A stretch of DNA of 4,458 nt from a virus (lineage: Duplodnaviria > Heunggongvirae > Uroviricota > Caudoviricetes), in the IMG/VR virus record IMGVR_UViG_2582580934_000005. One strand, given 5' to 3'. Each line of letters opens with the position of its first letter. Within the stretch, counting starts at the first letter, position 1. Below, piece after piece: positions 683-4,458 of this stretch. Under the pieces are notes generated by a model. It worked only from the letters and a program-made list of their open reading frames with translations, made no database searches and had not been told where the DNA came from. Position numbers and translations under genes: made by a program.

Positions 683-1072
683 ATGATTGACGCTCATGAC
701 TTCACAAGATGGGTGCGCACACAGGACACCCGTCTGGCTCCCGTTCTTCAGGGATTATTTGATCTCTACATCCGTGGTCGTGACAACAGAGCACGCACCA
801 CAAAACCGGAGAATGCAGACACCCTTTATTTCACAGTAGACGACTGCTACCGCGTGGACTTCACACCACACGGGCTGGCGTTGCACTGCCTGACACCACA
901 CGGCGAATCACTACTGGCGTATTACGACTCCCCGGCCTCCGTATTTGCGGCAATGCTGGCGCATCGCACTGCTGGCGGGTGTGCCTCGCTGAGTGAATAC
1001 ACCGCTGAATTTGACCGCCTTTCCGCCATCTTCTCGCAGGAGTGGCAGCGCGTGACGGGATACCAGCCATGA
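683..1072 (+). CDS. Hypothetical protein (129 aa), translationally coupled to the downstream replication initiator
   Basis: ATG at 683 with AAGAGA (669-674) 8 nt upstream. Its TGA stop (1070-1072) overlaps the ATG (1069-1071) of the gpA-like gene in an ATGA arrangement. No family recognised. Confidence 0.55.
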   Translation: MIDAHDFTRWVRTQDTRLAPVLQGLFDLYIRGRDNRARTTKPENADTLYFTVDDCYRVDFTPHGLALHCLTPHGESLLAYYDSPASVFAAMLAHRTAGGCASLSEYTAEFDRLSAIFSQEWQRVTGYQP

Positions 1073-3924
1073 GTGAGTTTGCATGGAGCTGGAATGAACC
1101 ACGACCAGCCATTGATCCGGCCAGATTTACGGAGCGCAGGCAGGAAACTGAAACCGACTTGCAACGCGTCATCCGTTACTACCTTGAGGCGGACAAAAAG
1201 GCCCGGGAAGAACAGGAAGCGAAGGAGGAAGCCTTTTTCGCACAATCCGCCATGGGTAAAAAACTCATGGCATCCCTTGAGGAAGCCGGACAGCGTGAAA
1301 AGCTGGCTCAGAGCATCATCAGTAAGCGCCGGGCAACAGAACAAGACCCGGTAGCCCGTGCCTTTGCCACACTGAAGGCGCTTCCCGTTTATCTGCGAGA
1401 ACCTCTGAGCCGCCACCTCTCTTTCCTGCGCAAAAAACAGGAAGCCGATCGCCGGAAAGGCAAAAAGAGCTGGCAGGCTGAACGCTACGCGCGCGGAACC
1501 CTGCGCAAAATATTCGAACGTCTGGACCGCACCGACCACCGCTGGCTGACACCGGGTTATCGCTCCCTTGCCGGACGCGAACGCCTGGATGATTTGCTTT
1601 ACCTGCCGCAGCTCAACAAACACCAGATACAGACGCTGGCCACCATGACGGCGGCGATGTTCAGCAGCACCTTCGAAAAACTCTGCGATGGCTTTGGCGC
1701 GACTGATGGCGAGCTGACCATGGATGTAACGCTGAAGGCGTATCAGATGCTGGCCCGCATGGCGTTACACCTGCACGCCATGCCTCCGCATTATGACGCA
1801 CTGACAACAGACAAAGACCGGAGGAACGAACCGGACACGGAGCTGCTGCCGGGCGCAATCCTTCGCCTGACCTGTGCGGAATGGTGGAAACGAAAACTGT
1901 GGCTGTTACGTTGCGAGTGGAGAGAAGAACAACTCCGCGCCGCCTGTCTGGTTTCCAGAAAAACATCGCCCTATCTGAGCCAGGACGCGTTAAGCGAGTT
2001 TCGCGCACAGCGCGAGAAAACACGCGATTTCCTGAAAAGTTTCATGCTGGAAAACGAAGACGGGTTCACGATTGATCTCGAGACAGTGTATTACGCGGGA
2101 GTAAGTAACCCGGTTCACCGTAAAGCAGAAATGATGGCCACCATGAAGGGACTGGAACTTCTGGCCGAAGCCCGTGGCGACAGAGCGGTGTTTCTGACTG
2201 TCACCTGCCCGTCAAAATACCACGCAACAACGGAGAACGGTCATCCGAACCCCAAATGGAACGGGGCCACCATGCGCGACTCCAGCGATTACCTGGTTAA
2301 CACGTTTTTTGCGGCGGTCCGCAAAAAACTGAACCGCGACGGCCTGCGCTGGTATGGCATCCGCACGGTGGAGCCTCACCATGACGGCACCGTGCACTGG
2401 CATATGATGGTCTTTGCTCATCCGGAAGAAATCGACAGCATCGTGGCCATCACCCGCGATATTGCCATTCAGGAAGACCGCCACGAGCTGGGCAATGACA
2501 TTACTCCGCGCTTTAAGGTGGAGTATGTCGACGGCTCAAAAGGCACACCAACCAGCTATATCGCCACCTACATTATCGCGACCTACATCGGAAAAAACCT
2601 GGACAGCCGCGCCGTGGATGGCATCGACCCGAAAACGGGCAAACCACGCGTTGACCACGAAATCGGAAAATCAATGGCCGAGAGCGTGGAGCGCGCCATC
2701 GGCTGGGCACGCCTTCACCGGGTCCGCCAGTTCCAGTTCTTTGGCATCCCCTCCCGTCAGGTGTGGCGTGAACTCCGCCGCCTTGCCAGCCAGATGGCAC
2801 GCAACCCGGAAGGCCCGCAACGGCTGAAGGATGACGCAATGGATGCGGTACTCGCTGCCGCTGATGCCGGATGTTTTGCCACCTACATAGAGAAACAGGG
2901 CGGCGTACTTGTTCCGCGCAAGGACTACCTGATTCGCACCGCCTACGACCTCGCCGATGAGCTGAACGATTACGGCGAACAGAGCGTACAGATTTACGGG
3001 ATCTGGTCACCACTCATCGGGGAATCCTCCCGTGTGTGCACGCATCCGGATAACTGGAAGCTGGTAAGACGTAAACCGGAAGCGGAAGACAGCGCCCGCG
3101 AAAATGGTTTTGACCTTCAGGGCGGCCCTGCCGCCCCTTGGACTCGTGGCAATAACTGTCCCCGTGTACAGGAAACGGACAACAACGGGACAGAACAGCC
3201 GGAAGAACGGCCAGCACCGTGGCCGCAGCTTCCTGACGGCATTGAAGTGAACGAATGGATGCGCTCACTGAAACGGCACGAACGCCGGGCGCTGATGCGT
3301 TCGCTTCGTGACAAACAGGCAAAAAACAGCAGTGATGAAATGCAGAGCTGGACACAGAGCCGCAAACAGCAGCGGCCTTTGCCTGATAACCACGAATTAC
3401 TCGCTAGAGAATGGCGGGAGTCTGCTGAATCTCTCGGCCTGCATATCGGTGAACAACAAATGCAGCACCTGTTACGGGGCGGCAGTCTGTACGTTGACGG
3501 CAGCATCATTGCACCGCAGGGATTTGAAATTGTACGCAAACCGGATACCCGCCCGGACAGCCGAATCACGCAGCTCTGGCAGCGCCTGAGCCGTAATCAC
3601 GGTGTAAGCAGCACGGAGATCCGCCATAACCCGGTCGCCAGCTATCTGGCACAGCTGGGGGCATCAGACCCTGAAGCCGCCACACGCCTGGCATCCACAC
3701 TTCAGCAGGACCAGAACACCATGAAAACACCCGTTACCGTGCTTTCTGACATGCTGCGCGCCATCCGCGACGCAGAGCACGCACAGAGAATCAGTGAAAC
3801 CACTGAACGCGCCCGCCGCAAAGCAGACCTGCTGCGGGGTGGCCTGACCAGTGGAAACAAAAAACAGACAGAAACGGGACTCACGAATCCCGTAAATGAG
3901 CAAAAAACGCGCAGCGATATATGA
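1069..3924 (+). CDS. Rolling-circle replication initiator / replication endonuclease, phage P2 gpA family (HUH endonuclease), 951 aa
   Basis: Long ORF in the supplied track (1042-3924). Contains VEPHHDGTVHWHMM (HWH at 2395-2403) and a tyrosine motif SYIATYIIATYIGKN (2554-2598), which match what I recall of the P2/186 A protein motifs (VEPHHDGxxHWHMM; GYIAKYISKN with catalytic Tyr 450/454). Start placed at ATG 1069 (ATGA overlap with the upstream stop) in preference to the track's GTG 1042, which has an AGGAG directly abutting it with no spacer. Longer than the roughly 760-aa P2 protein as I recall it. Confidence 0.9.
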   Translation: MSEFAWSWNEPRPAIDPARFTERRQETETDLQRVIRYYLEADKKAREEQEAKEEAFFAQSAMGKKLMASLEEAGQREKLAQSIISKRRATEQDPVARAFATLKALPVYLREPLSRHLSFLRKKQEADRRKGKKSWQAERYARGTLRKIFERLDRTDHRWLTPGYRSLAGRERLDDLLYLPQLNKHQIQTLATMTAAMFSSTFEKLCDGFGATDGELTMDVTLKAYQMLARMALHLHAMPPHYDALTTDKDRRNEPDTELLPGAILRLTCAEWWKRKLWLLRCEWREEQLRAACLVSRKTSPYLSQDALSEFRAQREKTRDFLKSFMLENEDGFTIDLETVYYAGVSNPVHRKAEMMATMKGLELLAEARGDRAVFLTVTCPSKYHATTENGHPNPKWNGATMRDSSDYLVNTFFAAVRKKLNRDGLRWYGIRTVEPHHDGTVHWHMMVFAHPEEIDSIVAITRDIAIQEDRHELGNDITPRFKVEYVDGSKGTPTSYIATYIIATYIGKNLDSRAVDGIDPKTGKPRVDHEIGKSMAESVERAIGWARLHRVRQFQFFGIPSRQVWRELRRLASQMARNPEGPQRLKDDAMDAVLAAADAGCFATYIEKQGGVLVPRKDYLIRTAYDLADELNDYGEQSVQIYGIWSPLIGESSRVCTHPDNWKLVRRKPEAEDSARENGFDLQGGPAAPWTRGNNCPRVQETDNNGTEQPEERPAPWPQLPDGIEVNEWMRSLKRHERRALMRSLRDKQAKNSSDEMQSWTQSRKQQRPLPDNHELLAREWRESAESLGLHIGEQQMQHLLRGGSLYVDGSIIAPQGFEIVRKPDTRPDSRITQLWQRLSRNHGVSSTEIRHNPVASYLAQLGASDPEAATRLASTLQQDQNTMKTPVTVLSDMLRAIRDAEHAQRISETTERARRKADLLRGGLTSGNKKQTETGLTNPVNEQKTRSDI
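2560..2589 (+). repeat. 15-bp imperfect tandem duplication inside the catalytic tyrosine motif of the gpA-like gene (encodes IATYI-IATYI)
   Basis: atcgccacctacatt (2560-2574) followed by atcgcgacctacatc (2575-2589), 13/15 identical and in frame. Gives Tyr at codons 497, 501 and 506 (numbered from the 1069 start). Confidence 0.7.
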
Positions 3925-3972
3925 AGCGCGCACAAAACAGGCAAAAACGGGATTTCAGAATCCCGTAAACGA
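3862..3972. repeat. Two copies of a ~38-bp direct repeat, each containing a 20-bp palindrome (ACGGGAnT-N4-AATCCCGT); candidate partition centromere/operator (parC-like)
   Basis: Copy 1 at 3862-3899 (palindrome 3874-3893, inside the gpA 3' coding end). Copy 2 at 3935-3972 (palindrome 3947-3966, perfect 8-bp arms, in the intergenic region). 32/38 identity; centres 73 bp apart, about 7 helical turns. CA5-6C A-tracts sit at 3858, 3901, 3931 and 3941. Lies directly upstream of the ParM-like start. Confidence 0.5.
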
Positions 3973-4000
3973 TTAATTAATCAACATAAGGAAAAGCGAC

Positions 4001-4458
4001 ATGAAAATTTGTATCGACGACGGCTCCACCAACATCAAGCTGGCATGGACTGAGAACGGCGAACGCCGCAACGCCATCAGCCCGAACAGCTTCAAGTCGG
4101 AATGGTCTGCGCCGTTCGGTGGTACGCAGCCCGCGAACTACATGCTTGATGGCGTGCGCTATGGTTTTGATCCGGTCAGCGATCGCTTTGTCCAGACGAC
4201 CGACACGCAATACCAGTACAGCGATGTGAATGTCATTGCCATTCATCACGCGCTGGTCAAATCAGGCATCACGCCACAGGAGGTGGATGTGGTTGTCACC
4301 CTGCCACTGAGCGAGTATTTCGACACAAACGCACAGCCGGACATGGCCAACATCAGCCGCAAAAAAGCGAACGTTATGCGCCCGGTGGAGTACCAGAACG
4401 GTGAGGCATTCACTATCCGTAACGTACGGGTTATGCCTGAATCCATTCCGGCTGGCTT
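4001..4458 (+). CDS. parM: ParM/StbA-like actin-type plasmid segregation ATPase (5' partial; continues beyond the window)
   Basis: ATG at 4001 with AGGA (3989-3992) 8 nt upstream; in-frame stop TAA at 3974-3976 bounds the start. My translation MKICIDDGSTNIKLAWTENGERRNAISPNSFKSEWSAPFGG...YSDVNVIAIHHALVKSGITPQEVDVVVTLPLSEYFDTNAQP...RKKANVMRP...FTIRNVRVMPESIPAG shares blocks with the N-terminal half of R1/R100 ParM(StbA) as I recall it (IDDGSTNIKL, ISPNSFK, YSDVNV, HHAL, KKAN, VMPESIPAG). Not in the supplied ORF track because no stop occurs within the window. Confidence 0.88.
   Translation, partial: MKICIDDGSTNIKLAWTENGERRNAISPNSFKSEWSAPFGGTQPANYMLDGVRYGFDPVSDRFVQTTDTQYQYSDVNVIAIHHALVKSGITPQEVDVVVTLPLSEYFDTNAQPDMANISRKKANVMRPVEYQNGEAFTIRNVRVMPESIPAG

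Follow-up and report, generated by a model that had tools for sequence, protein, structure and literature searches.

A private 15-bp tandem duplication in motif III of a gpA-family replication initiator from a P88-like prophage

The replication-initiator gene and its conserved motifs

The window, that is the whole 4,458-bp stretch of DNA analysed here, is a short, complete contig from a draft assembly of E. coli and covers the early region of a P2-like (P88/Xuanwuvirus-type) prophage. Its ORF at 1069-3924 comprises 951 codons, and residues are numbered from the ATG at 1069. The gene and the features recognized within it are the following:

1069..3924, + strand: gene for a gpA-family rolling-circle replication endonuclease (951 aa; WP_025672433.1), assigned from PF05840 and DNA identity to P88-like genes
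2395..2403, + strand: HUH motif His443-Trp-His445 within EPHHDGTVHWH, intact (H123 and H125 in construct numbering, both without variation in alignments A1 and A2)
3126..3160, + strand: putative origin or nick region inside the gene, proposed because of where it lies and because it resembles the nick site annotated in P2

The identification of this gene as a P2 gpA-type initiator, first proposed in a sequence-only reading of the window, is well founded. In a profile search, the window protein matched Phage_GPA (PF05840) with 426.7 bits (E 6e-128; cut-off 31.4 bits) over positions 1-320 of the 321 in the profile. WP_025672433.1 bears the product name 'replication endonuclease' at NCBI, and P88-like prophages and phages have 'replication endonuclease' genes that share 96-98.5% DNA identity with the window gene. 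The HUH nuclease fold is present. Motif I occurs N-terminal of the HUH motif as FLTVTCPSKYH (pattern FxTxTxPSxxH), with columns F55 and P61 (together with S62 and H65 in A1) invariant or nearly so, and the remaining invariant residues of the nuclease domain are all kept. The Y-x3-Y of the 2Y HUH class is likewise retained as Tyr497-IAT-Tyr501, which is modelled as helical, but the contiguous Y-x3-Y-x2-K is replaced in the window by Y-x3-Y-x4-Y-x2-K. Downstream of this insertion, the ORF remains open for 445 codons. Judged from its sequence, the window protein can be regarded as a Phage_GPA member by descent, but as a mutant allele; with the register of motif III broken, its catalytic competence cannot be assumed. 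Further downstream, the best match to the P2 ori core covers 22 of 30 bases at 3126-3155, in a homologous coding segment (AAPxxxxNNC), and 3126-3160 is proposed as a putative ori or nick region.

Structure and reading frame of the 15-bp duplication

Within motif III, the window carries two adjacent copies of a 15-bp unit:

2559..2573, + strand: copy 1, TATCGCCACCTACAT (Tandem Repeats Finder and repeat search; the sole gap of the whole-window global alignment to E. coli F163)
2574..2588, + strand: copy 2, TATCGCGACCTACAT (Tandem Repeats Finder and repeat search)
2557..2595, + strand: motif III region Tyr497-Ile-Ala-Thr-Tyr501-Ile-Ile-Ala-Thr-Tyr506-Ile-Gly-Lys509, normally Y-I-A-T-Y-I-G-K (translation; alignments A1 and A2)

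The in-frame tandem duplication of five residues, with its three tyrosines Y497, Y501 and Y506, correctly numbered from that ATG, had been noticed in the sequence-only reading and was recovered by repeat search and translation. Tandem Repeats Finder placed it at 2559-2588, with a period of 15, 2.0 copies and 93% matches. The duplication turns SYIATYIGKN into SYIATYIIATYIGKN, the translated region being S-Y-I-A-T-Y-I-I-A-T-Y-I-G-K-N, and the codons of interest lie at 2557-2559 (Tyr497), 2569-2571 (Tyr501), 2584-2586 (Tyr506) and 2593-2595 (Lys509). The two copies are identical at 14 of 15 positions and differ solely at C2565 versus G2580 (GCC versus GCG, both Ala), where C2565 in copy 1 departs from both copy 2 and the F163 allele. 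Two mismatches had initially been counted because the codon register 2560-2574/2575-2589 was chosen. One of the two results from the junction itself, where an ATT codon arises because the duplicated unit is T-ATC-GCS-ACC-TAC-AT, its first T being supplied by the TAT codon. The age argued from two mismatches does not hold, the more so as the flanking 2 kb are near-identical to a single-copy allele. At the junction of the duplicated allele, CACCTACAT is directly followed by TATCGCGACC, and the allele is marked by the 31-mer CGCCACCTACATTATCGCGACCTACATCGGA.

Any tandem with a period of 12-30 and at most one mismatch was found in 6 of 300 codon-shuffled windows; comparison with relatives is a stronger test of the duplication than shuffling. 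The evidence for the duplication itself comes from a single consensus sequence, that of a 4.5-kb draft contig.

Motif III spacing is invariant and the duplication is a singleton

According to PMC3986222, which cites Odegrip & Haggard-Ljungquist 2001, the P2 A protein has two active-site tyrosines in its motif C. In phiX174 protein A, Y1 and Y2 serve initiation and termination, and the YxxK motif of HUH enzymes is always located within an alpha-helix (PMC5714925). The Tyr450/Tyr454 pair that the sequence-only reading had named for P2 gpA was found in AGYIAKYISKNIDG of AF063097, and these are the two active-site tyrosines of PMC3986222.

Alignment with P2, 186 and gpA-family relatives revealed the one-unit IATYI-type spacing, Y-x3-Y-x2-K, in every homologue read. 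This spacing was present in 83 of 83 homologues reaching the motif and in 145 of 145 representatives at 50% identity reaching the motif, a total of 228 homologues, down to about 35% identity, with zero length variation; it is shared by P2 (Tyr450/Tyr454) and by 186. In alignments A1 and A2, the columns of both tyrosines and of the lysine are invariant, and the five-residue insertion occurs in the window only. That the duplicated motif might be the norm of the family or clade was also considered and rejected, no relative carrying the duplication.

At the repeat, a single 15-bp gap is all that sets three close relatives apart from the window, and their translation there is SYIATYIGKN. The closest allele, that of E. 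coli F163, is single-copy, with two substitutions between window positions 1137 and 3176 and no gap anywhere else along the contig. With copy 1 deleted, window positions 2500-2650 match 13 complete E. coli genomes without any difference; the 136/151 (90.1%) of the undeleted sequence is due solely to the 15 bases that these genomes lack. The duplication was found in 0 of the 1,276 complete E. coli genomes carrying the gene, which constitute the within-species test, and the best matches (136/151) lacked only the 15 bases. In the plasmid, phage and E. coli collections, all full-length matches spanned 2,841 bases for a query of 2,856, and the duplication was absent. A degenerate-pattern scan for YIATYIIATYI gave 0 hits in IMG/VR, GTDB species representatives and JGI metagenomes, the single-copy control pattern being present in at least 120 IMG/VR contigs; since the GTDB set has a single genome for each species, its result applies across species and not within E. 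coli. The exact 951-aa protein is recorded on one contig only, AYJZ01000070.1 of GCA_000511465.1, the 4,458-bp draft contig that is the window itself. Literature searches found no mention of the source assembly (AYJZ01/GCA_000511465) and nothing relevant on Xuanwuvirus or P88 biology. Among the collections searched, the duplication is a private singleton, occurring in none of the complete E. coli genomes with the gene, and the earlier suggestion of a lineage-specific active-site variant is not upheld.

Haplotypes, age and origin of the duplication

Among 123 relatives, two major haplotypes are distinguished at the Ala codon, TAC..GCC (about 80) and TAT..GCG (about 30). The TAT and GCC combination seen in copy 1 belongs to neither and occurs in 1 of the 123. 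The parent haplotype, TAT..GCG..GGAAAAAAC, occurs in relatives, and the junction T matches its TAT codon. A second private change lies close to the duplication:

2662..2664, + strand: Ile532, versus Thr/Ser in relatives (mismatch at 2663 against L001, L002 and L003)

This non-synonymous change falls in the same domain as the insertion, 26 codons away. Residue 532 is T in 102 and S in 17 of 122 relatives, and I in 0; the replacement of Thr/Ser by Ile fits with relaxed constraint. The codon differences from F163 (13 synonymous and 15 non-synonymous, mostly in the variable C-terminal third) are uninformative on selection after the duplication.

The first alternative to be weighed is a sequencing or assembly artefact, in which the true DNA would be single-copy and the reads of, for instance, two co-resident P88-like prophages (GCC and GCG) would have been collapsed. 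The duplication is indeed known from one draft assembly only, where both ends of its 4,458-bp contig fall inside conserved prophage genes, and up to four copies of the gene occur per E. coli genome. The sole difference between the copies falls at the site with the two main population alleles, GCC and GCG, but copy 1 corresponds to neither major haplotype, so that a simple two-allele mix does not reproduce it. The second private non-synonymous change would also suit an artefact, whereas the gap-free alignment of the remaining contig to F163 would not, and a clean in-frame 15-bp tandem copy is atypical of platform errors. Moreover, the junction CTACAT/TATCGCG occurs in no single-copy allele, and a k-mer assembler would therefore presumably need reads containing it. 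Taken together, an artefact appears unlikely.

A further alternative concerns the origin only and invokes unequal recombination or template switching between GCC-type and GCG-type gpA alleles of co-resident or co-infecting P88-like phages. Consistent with it, the copies differ exactly at the Ala third base that separates the main haplotypes, and multiple gene copies per genome do occur. However, copy 1 is TAT..GCC rather than the TAC..GCC of the major GCC haplotype and the upstream sequence is F163-like, so that a double switch within 10 bases would be needed. A single-copy TAT..GCC in this local background occurs in no complete E. coli genome (best match 99.3%). Unequal crossover between the two main haplotypes was rejected because it does not reproduce copy 1, and an origin from two alleles is, as a whole, rather improbable.

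The duplication is most likely recent, judging from the sequence, as just two substitutions separate window 1137-3176 from F163. Non-identical copies are unexpected for very recent, clean slippage on a background about 0.1% from the nearest relative. The 15-bp unit T-ATC-GCS-ACC-TAC-AT of an F163-like allele would have been copied in tandem, most likely by replication slippage or a similar template-switch error, and the single synonymous G/C difference would have been gained at or after the duplication event.

Predicted consequences for the initiator

In the AlphaFold2 model of the window domain (280-aa construct), motif III forms one longer helix (residues 177-191) and the domain fold is intact (pTM 0.75), with a mean pLDDT of 83.6 and local values of 54-72 at the helix. 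In the model of the single-copy relative P0031 (mean pLDDT 91.5), helix 241-251 bears Y244, Y248 and K251 with a local pLDDT of 91, and the loop after it is of low confidence (pLDDT 71-75). The lower pLDDT of the window model provides weak evidence, because it is expected where the alignment lacks homologous columns and because the constructs differ in length.

The geometry of the Tyr and Lys residues was derived from secondary structure, pLDDT and helical-wheel arithmetic. The Y-x3-Y-x2-K of relatives would lie on the same side of the helix, at about 0, 40 and 340 degrees. Anchored at its N-terminus, the longer helix would keep the Tyr497/Tyr501 i/i+4 pair and would shift the Lys by five residues, about 7.5 Å and 140 degrees. 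Anchored at its C-terminus, it would keep Tyr506-x2-Lys509, with Ile502 at the position of the first Tyr, and Tyr497 and Tyr501 would face the other side. The IATYI insertion would lie in the alpha-helix that bears both catalytic tyrosines together with the conserved lysine. As no register keeps all three residues after the insertion, we infer that the initiator is impaired. Nicking or, more likely, the second transesterification (termination and re-initiation) would be affected, and the prophage would then be replication-defective or weakened. Loss of function is suggested here by conservation and helical geometry; the intact Tyr497/Tyr501 pair, the other intact invariant residues, the 445 codons left open after the insertion and a post-helix loop that might accommodate it run counter to such a loss.

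The duplication could also be real and tolerated, or even useful, if Tyr497-x3-Tyr501 or a new pair works and the loop absorbs five residues, giving a viable three-tyrosine variant. The insertion preserves the reading frame and leaves the ORF intact, an i/i+4 Tyr pair and one Y-x2-K unit both survive, and the modelled segment stays helical within an intact domain; the post-helix loop, of low confidence in the single-copy model, might absorb the insertion. This is to be set against a spacing that is constant in all 228 homologues, as distant as about 35% identity, and against the lack of descendants in any collection searched. The synonymous nature of the copy difference is as expected under protein selection after the event, but a single such change is without statistical weight. 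Such tolerance is conceivable, although we hold it to be improbable. A special case, in which the helix with its three tyrosines functions as an active site, with nicking intact and the second transesterification altered, would make this a natural separation-of-function allele of a 2Y initiator; Tyr506, on the opposite helical face, could then possibly take over, or initiation could be uncoupled from termination. We consider this very improbable.

The explanation that we favour, as probable though far from assured, is a duplication that arose recently by slippage in a P88-like prophage and breaks the Tyr-Tyr-Lys register, probably crippling the initiator, as part of ordinary prophage decay. 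Except for this one private lesion, the initiator would be an ordinary gpA-family HUH rolling-circle nickase. Of the three options raised by the sequence-only reading, the best fit is recent slippage altering the nickase geometry; a private mutation, both recent and damaging, is most likely, and a new kind of active site less likely. If the duplication is real, the prophage is probably unable to start or complete rolling-circle replication. The bearing of this is limited to whether this one prophage is inducible or a decaying remnant, with little beyond the strain. Nevertheless, the allele is a small natural illustration of the strictness of the Tyr-x3-Tyr-x2-Lys register among diverse homologues, and it offers an existing construct with which tyrosine alternation in 2Y HUH nickases could be studied. 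For annotation, it illustrates that an intact ORF and a strong Pfam match can still hide an active-site lesion.

Comparison with known systems

The most remote systems compared are the 2Y HUH enzymes phiX174 protein A, IS91 TnpA (Tyr249/Tyr253) and the Helraiser Helitron transposase (PDB 7LCC), structural relatives with 11-13% identity. None of them is known to carry three tyrosines at spacings of 4 and 5.

P2 gpA (AAD03306.1) and the 186 A protein (AAC34186.1) are the studied PF05840 members, with about 40% identity to the window in the HUH domain. They share with it motif I (TxTxPS), the HUH motif (EPHHDGTPHWH in P2 and 186) and the two motif III tyrosines, between which they have Lys (YIAKY) whereas the window clade has Thr (YIATY). 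Both proteins are shorter (761 and 694 aa), with neither an adjacent ParM module nor an insertion in motif III. The P2 A protein acts in cis, which requires gene and ori to share one molecule. In P2, a rep_origin is annotated inside gene A, whereas the origin inside the window gene is only putative, by similarity.

The closest systems are the P88-like (Xuanwuvirus, Peduoviridae) endonucleases of F163 (WP_269568610.1), PhiR44_2 (XSB42701.1) and P88 (YP_009113059.1), with 96-98.5% DNA identity over the whole gene. They share the gene neighbours of the window: upstream lie a derepression protein and an ORF of 129 aa, and downstream lie the ParM/StbA partition genes. The catalytic domain is also the same, with two substitutions in 2 kb relative to F163. 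These relatives have 946 aa (940 aa in P88) and read SYIATYIGKN, whereas the window protein has 951 aa, with the extra IATYI and the private Thr532Ile.

A tandem duplication in the catalytic motif of the initiator

The reading best supported by the evidence is that the active-site helix of a phage replication nickase of a well-known type has been damaged by a recent duplication, private to the prophage of a single strain. The duplication is a real feature of the sequence: Tandem Repeats Finder placed a repeat of period 15 and two copies, with 93% matches, at 2559-2588, in frame within the initiator gene.

2559-2573, + strand: copy 1, TATCGCCACCTACAT
2574-2588, + strand: copy 2, TATCGCGACCTACAT

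The protein reads S-Y497-I-A-T-Y501-I-I-A-T-Y506-I-G-K509-N. A sequence-only reading had described a five-residue duplication giving three tyrosines at spacings of 4 and 5, and repeat finding, translation and comparison with relatives agree with this account, including its coordinates and residue numbers. Its two mismatches between copies come from aligning them by codon; aligned by the repeat unit itself, they differ only at C2565 versus G2580. The junction isoleucine codon, ATT, combines the terminal AT of copy 1 with the leading T of copy 2, which derives from the TAT codon of Tyr497. By chance, 6 of 300 codon-shuffled windows held a tandem repeat with a period of 12-30 and no more than one mismatch, and the comparison with relatives is far stronger evidence than this statistic. 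A weaker second tandem repeat (3343-3369, + strand; period 12, 2.2 copies, 80% matches, unit CAGAGCCGCAAA) falls within the initiator's variable C-terminal portion, and a 9-bp tandem is also present at 2975.

Relatives were searched for one unit or two, as had been proposed from the sequence, and carried one throughout, without exception. The E. coli F163 locus, which is the closest allele, and phages PhiR44_2 and P88 all read SYIATYIGKN, each differing from the window at the duplication by exactly one 15-bp gap. Full-length matches in plasmid, phage and E. coli collections all span 2,841 bases, against 2,856 for the query. When 151 bases with the repeat at their centre served as query, 1,276 complete E. 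coli genomes proved to carry the gene; the top matches, at 136/151, were identical to the query except for 15 absent bases. The fully degenerate DNA pattern for Y-I-A-T-Y-I-I-A-T-Y-I had no match in GTDB (one genome per species), IMG/VR or JGI metagenomes, and the single-copy control pattern S-Y-I-A-T-Y-I-G-K-N was found on at least 120 IMG/VR contigs. WP_025672433.1, identical to the window's protein, is recorded on one contig only, the window itself; its 90% cluster has 3,025 members, the named ones mostly of 941-946 aa. With a single unit in every relative examined, the suggestion of a clade-level active-site variant was not borne out.

Constraint on the motif

In P2 gpA (AGYIAKYISKNIDG), the sequence of AF063097 places tyrosines at 450 and 454, the positions given in the earlier reading, and PMC3986222, citing Odegrip & Haggard-Ljungquist 2001, identifies them as the pair of active-site tyrosines in motif C. 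The pattern Y-x3-Y-x2-K occurred in 83/83 homologues reaching the motif, among 120 from the 90%-cluster database (the other 37 being fragments or frameshifted products terminating short of it), and in 145 of a further 147 50%-identity representatives, the two exceptions being fragments of 84 and 148 aa. Both tyrosine columns and the lysine column were invariant in the alignments, where the window's insertion was the sole length variation at this motif. The remaining invariant positions of the domain, among them motif I and the HUH histidines, are all kept in the window. That the duplication is a tolerated variant is, against this record of constant spacing, unlikely.

Age and origin of the duplication

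Over 1137-3176, the window differs from F163 by two substitutions (2271, synonymous; 2663) and the 15-bp insertion only, so that a very similar single-copy allele exists today. Divergence from F163 is a mosaic, with 2 mismatches in these central 2 kb, about 35 over 0.8 kb (348-1136) and about 38 over 1.3 kb (3177-4458), a pattern suggestive of recombination with breakpoints close to 1136 and 3177.

Motif DNA from 123 relatives fell mainly into two haplotypes, AGC-TAC-ATC-GCC (about 80 members) and AGC-TAT-ATC-GCG (about 30); the TAT..GCC combination occurred once. Copy 2 and all sequence downstream belong to the TAT..GCG..GGAAAAAAC haplotype, with whose TAT codon the junction T is consistent, and copy 1 pairs TAT with GCC. 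In the simplest history, 15 bases would have been copied in tandem inside a TAT..GCG allele, with one G-to-C change in copy 1 during or after duplication. Copy 1 was not reproduced by an unequal exchange involving the two major haplotypes, and a synthetic single-copy TAT..GCC allele in the window's local background was matched exactly by none of the complete E. coli genomes. Set against a background of 0.1%, the single inter-copy difference is mildly surprising; it could equally reflect error-prone copying, a mutation acquired later or an error in the consensus. An assembly artefact as the source of the whole duplication, an explanation to which the restriction to one draft contig might point, is improbable.

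Predicted structure and likely consequence

Neither sequence search nor Foldseek found a solved structure of the Phage_GPA family. We compared models of P0031, a single-copy relative (410 aa), and of the window domain (280 aa, residues 321-600).

P0031, 241-251: motif helix carrying Y244, Y248 and K251
Window domain, 177-191 (construct numbering): motif helix carrying three tyrosines and the lysine

Mean pLDDT was 91.5 for P0031 versus 83.6 for the window domain, pTM 0.87 versus 0.75 and local pLDDT at the motif 91 versus 54-72, a drop partly expected because the inserted residues lack alignment columns and the constructs are of unequal length. The motif helix of P0031 is followed by a less confident loop (pLDDT 71-75), and in the window domain the blocks beyond the helix score 69-71.

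At 100 degrees per residue, the two normal tyrosines and the lysine lie at 0, 40 and 340 degrees, on one helix face. If the N-terminal register were kept, Tyr497 and Tyr501 would be in place, Lys509 would lie five residues on (about 7.5 Å along and 140 degrees around) and Tyr506 would face away. If the C-terminal register were kept, Tyr506-x2-Lys509 would be in place, the first tyrosine position would become Ile502, and Tyr497 and Tyr501 would sit at about 220 and 260 degrees. Neither register would preserve all three invariant residues. Because length variation is wholly absent from the family, an initiator with this duplication is expected to be hypomorphic or dead; failure of the second transesterification is a more probable defect than misfolding.

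A private Ile532 (2662-2664, + strand; mismatch at 2663) sits in the loop that follows the catalytic helix, 26 residues downstream of the duplication, and is one of only two substitutions from F163 within 2 kb. Among 122 relatives, this residue is threonine in 102 and serine in 17 (T/S 119/122), and isoleucine in none. Ile532 is compatible with relaxed constraint on the gene, and also with a lower-quality consensus.

Genomic context and comparison with known phages

The window is the entire contig AYJZ01000070.1 of draft E. coli assembly GCA_000511465.1.

69-686, + strand: ORF, 205 aa, called in the source record
126-200, + strand: isrK Hfq-binding sRNA, full-length Rfam RF01394 match (62.8 bits, gathering score 50, E 3e-12)
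236-323, + strand: C4 antisense RNA, full-length Rfam RF01695 match (78.5 bits, gathering score 45, E 8e-15)
380-610: 'derepression' ORF, 76 aa, PF25738
683-1072: ORF, 129 aa
1069-3924, + strand: initiator ORF, 951 aa, Pfam Phage_GPA PF05840 (426.7 bits, E 6e-128)
3126-3160, + strand: putative ori/nick segment, homologous to the P2 and 186 origin/nick site
4001-4458, + strand: start of ParM/StbA partition gene, PF06406 (E 8e-81)

Gene, family, mechanism and kind of mutation are each of a familiar sort. Gene order is shared, at DNA identities of 96-98.5%, with P88-like phages (Xuanwuvirus, Peduoviridae) and with prophages in 1,443 of the 5,426 complete E. coli genomes, where the initiator homologue is labelled 'replication endonuclease'. 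Directly 3' of this rolling-circle initiator lies a plasmid-type ParM/StbA actin-like partition gene (4001-4458 in the window, 5918-7193 in the F163 locus), followed in relatives by a small partition/stability protein; the unit is a plasmid-style segregation module within an integrated P2-like prophage.

Both RNA matches lie upstream of the 76-aa derepression ORF, C4 immediately so, and the isrK match ends in a terminator-like hairpin (180-195) followed by a T run. Judged from these matches, the C4 RNA and derepression ORF resemble an immunity module of the P1/P7 C4/ant type carried by a P2-like prophage. The 205-aa ORF has no Pfam hit, runs through the two predicted sRNAs, shares bases with the derepression ORF in a different frame, and is doubtful because of the C4/ant-type module there; RefSeq annotates only the 76-aa ORF in E. 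coli F163, and the longer one is probably a spurious gene call.

In P2 and 186, the origin/nick site lies inside gene A; the homologous segment here, 3126-3160, matches the P2 ori core at 22/30 positions (CCCTGCCGCCCCTTGGACTCGTGGCAATAA versus CATCGCCGCGCCTCGGAGTCCTGTCAATAA) and is likely the ori of this prophage.
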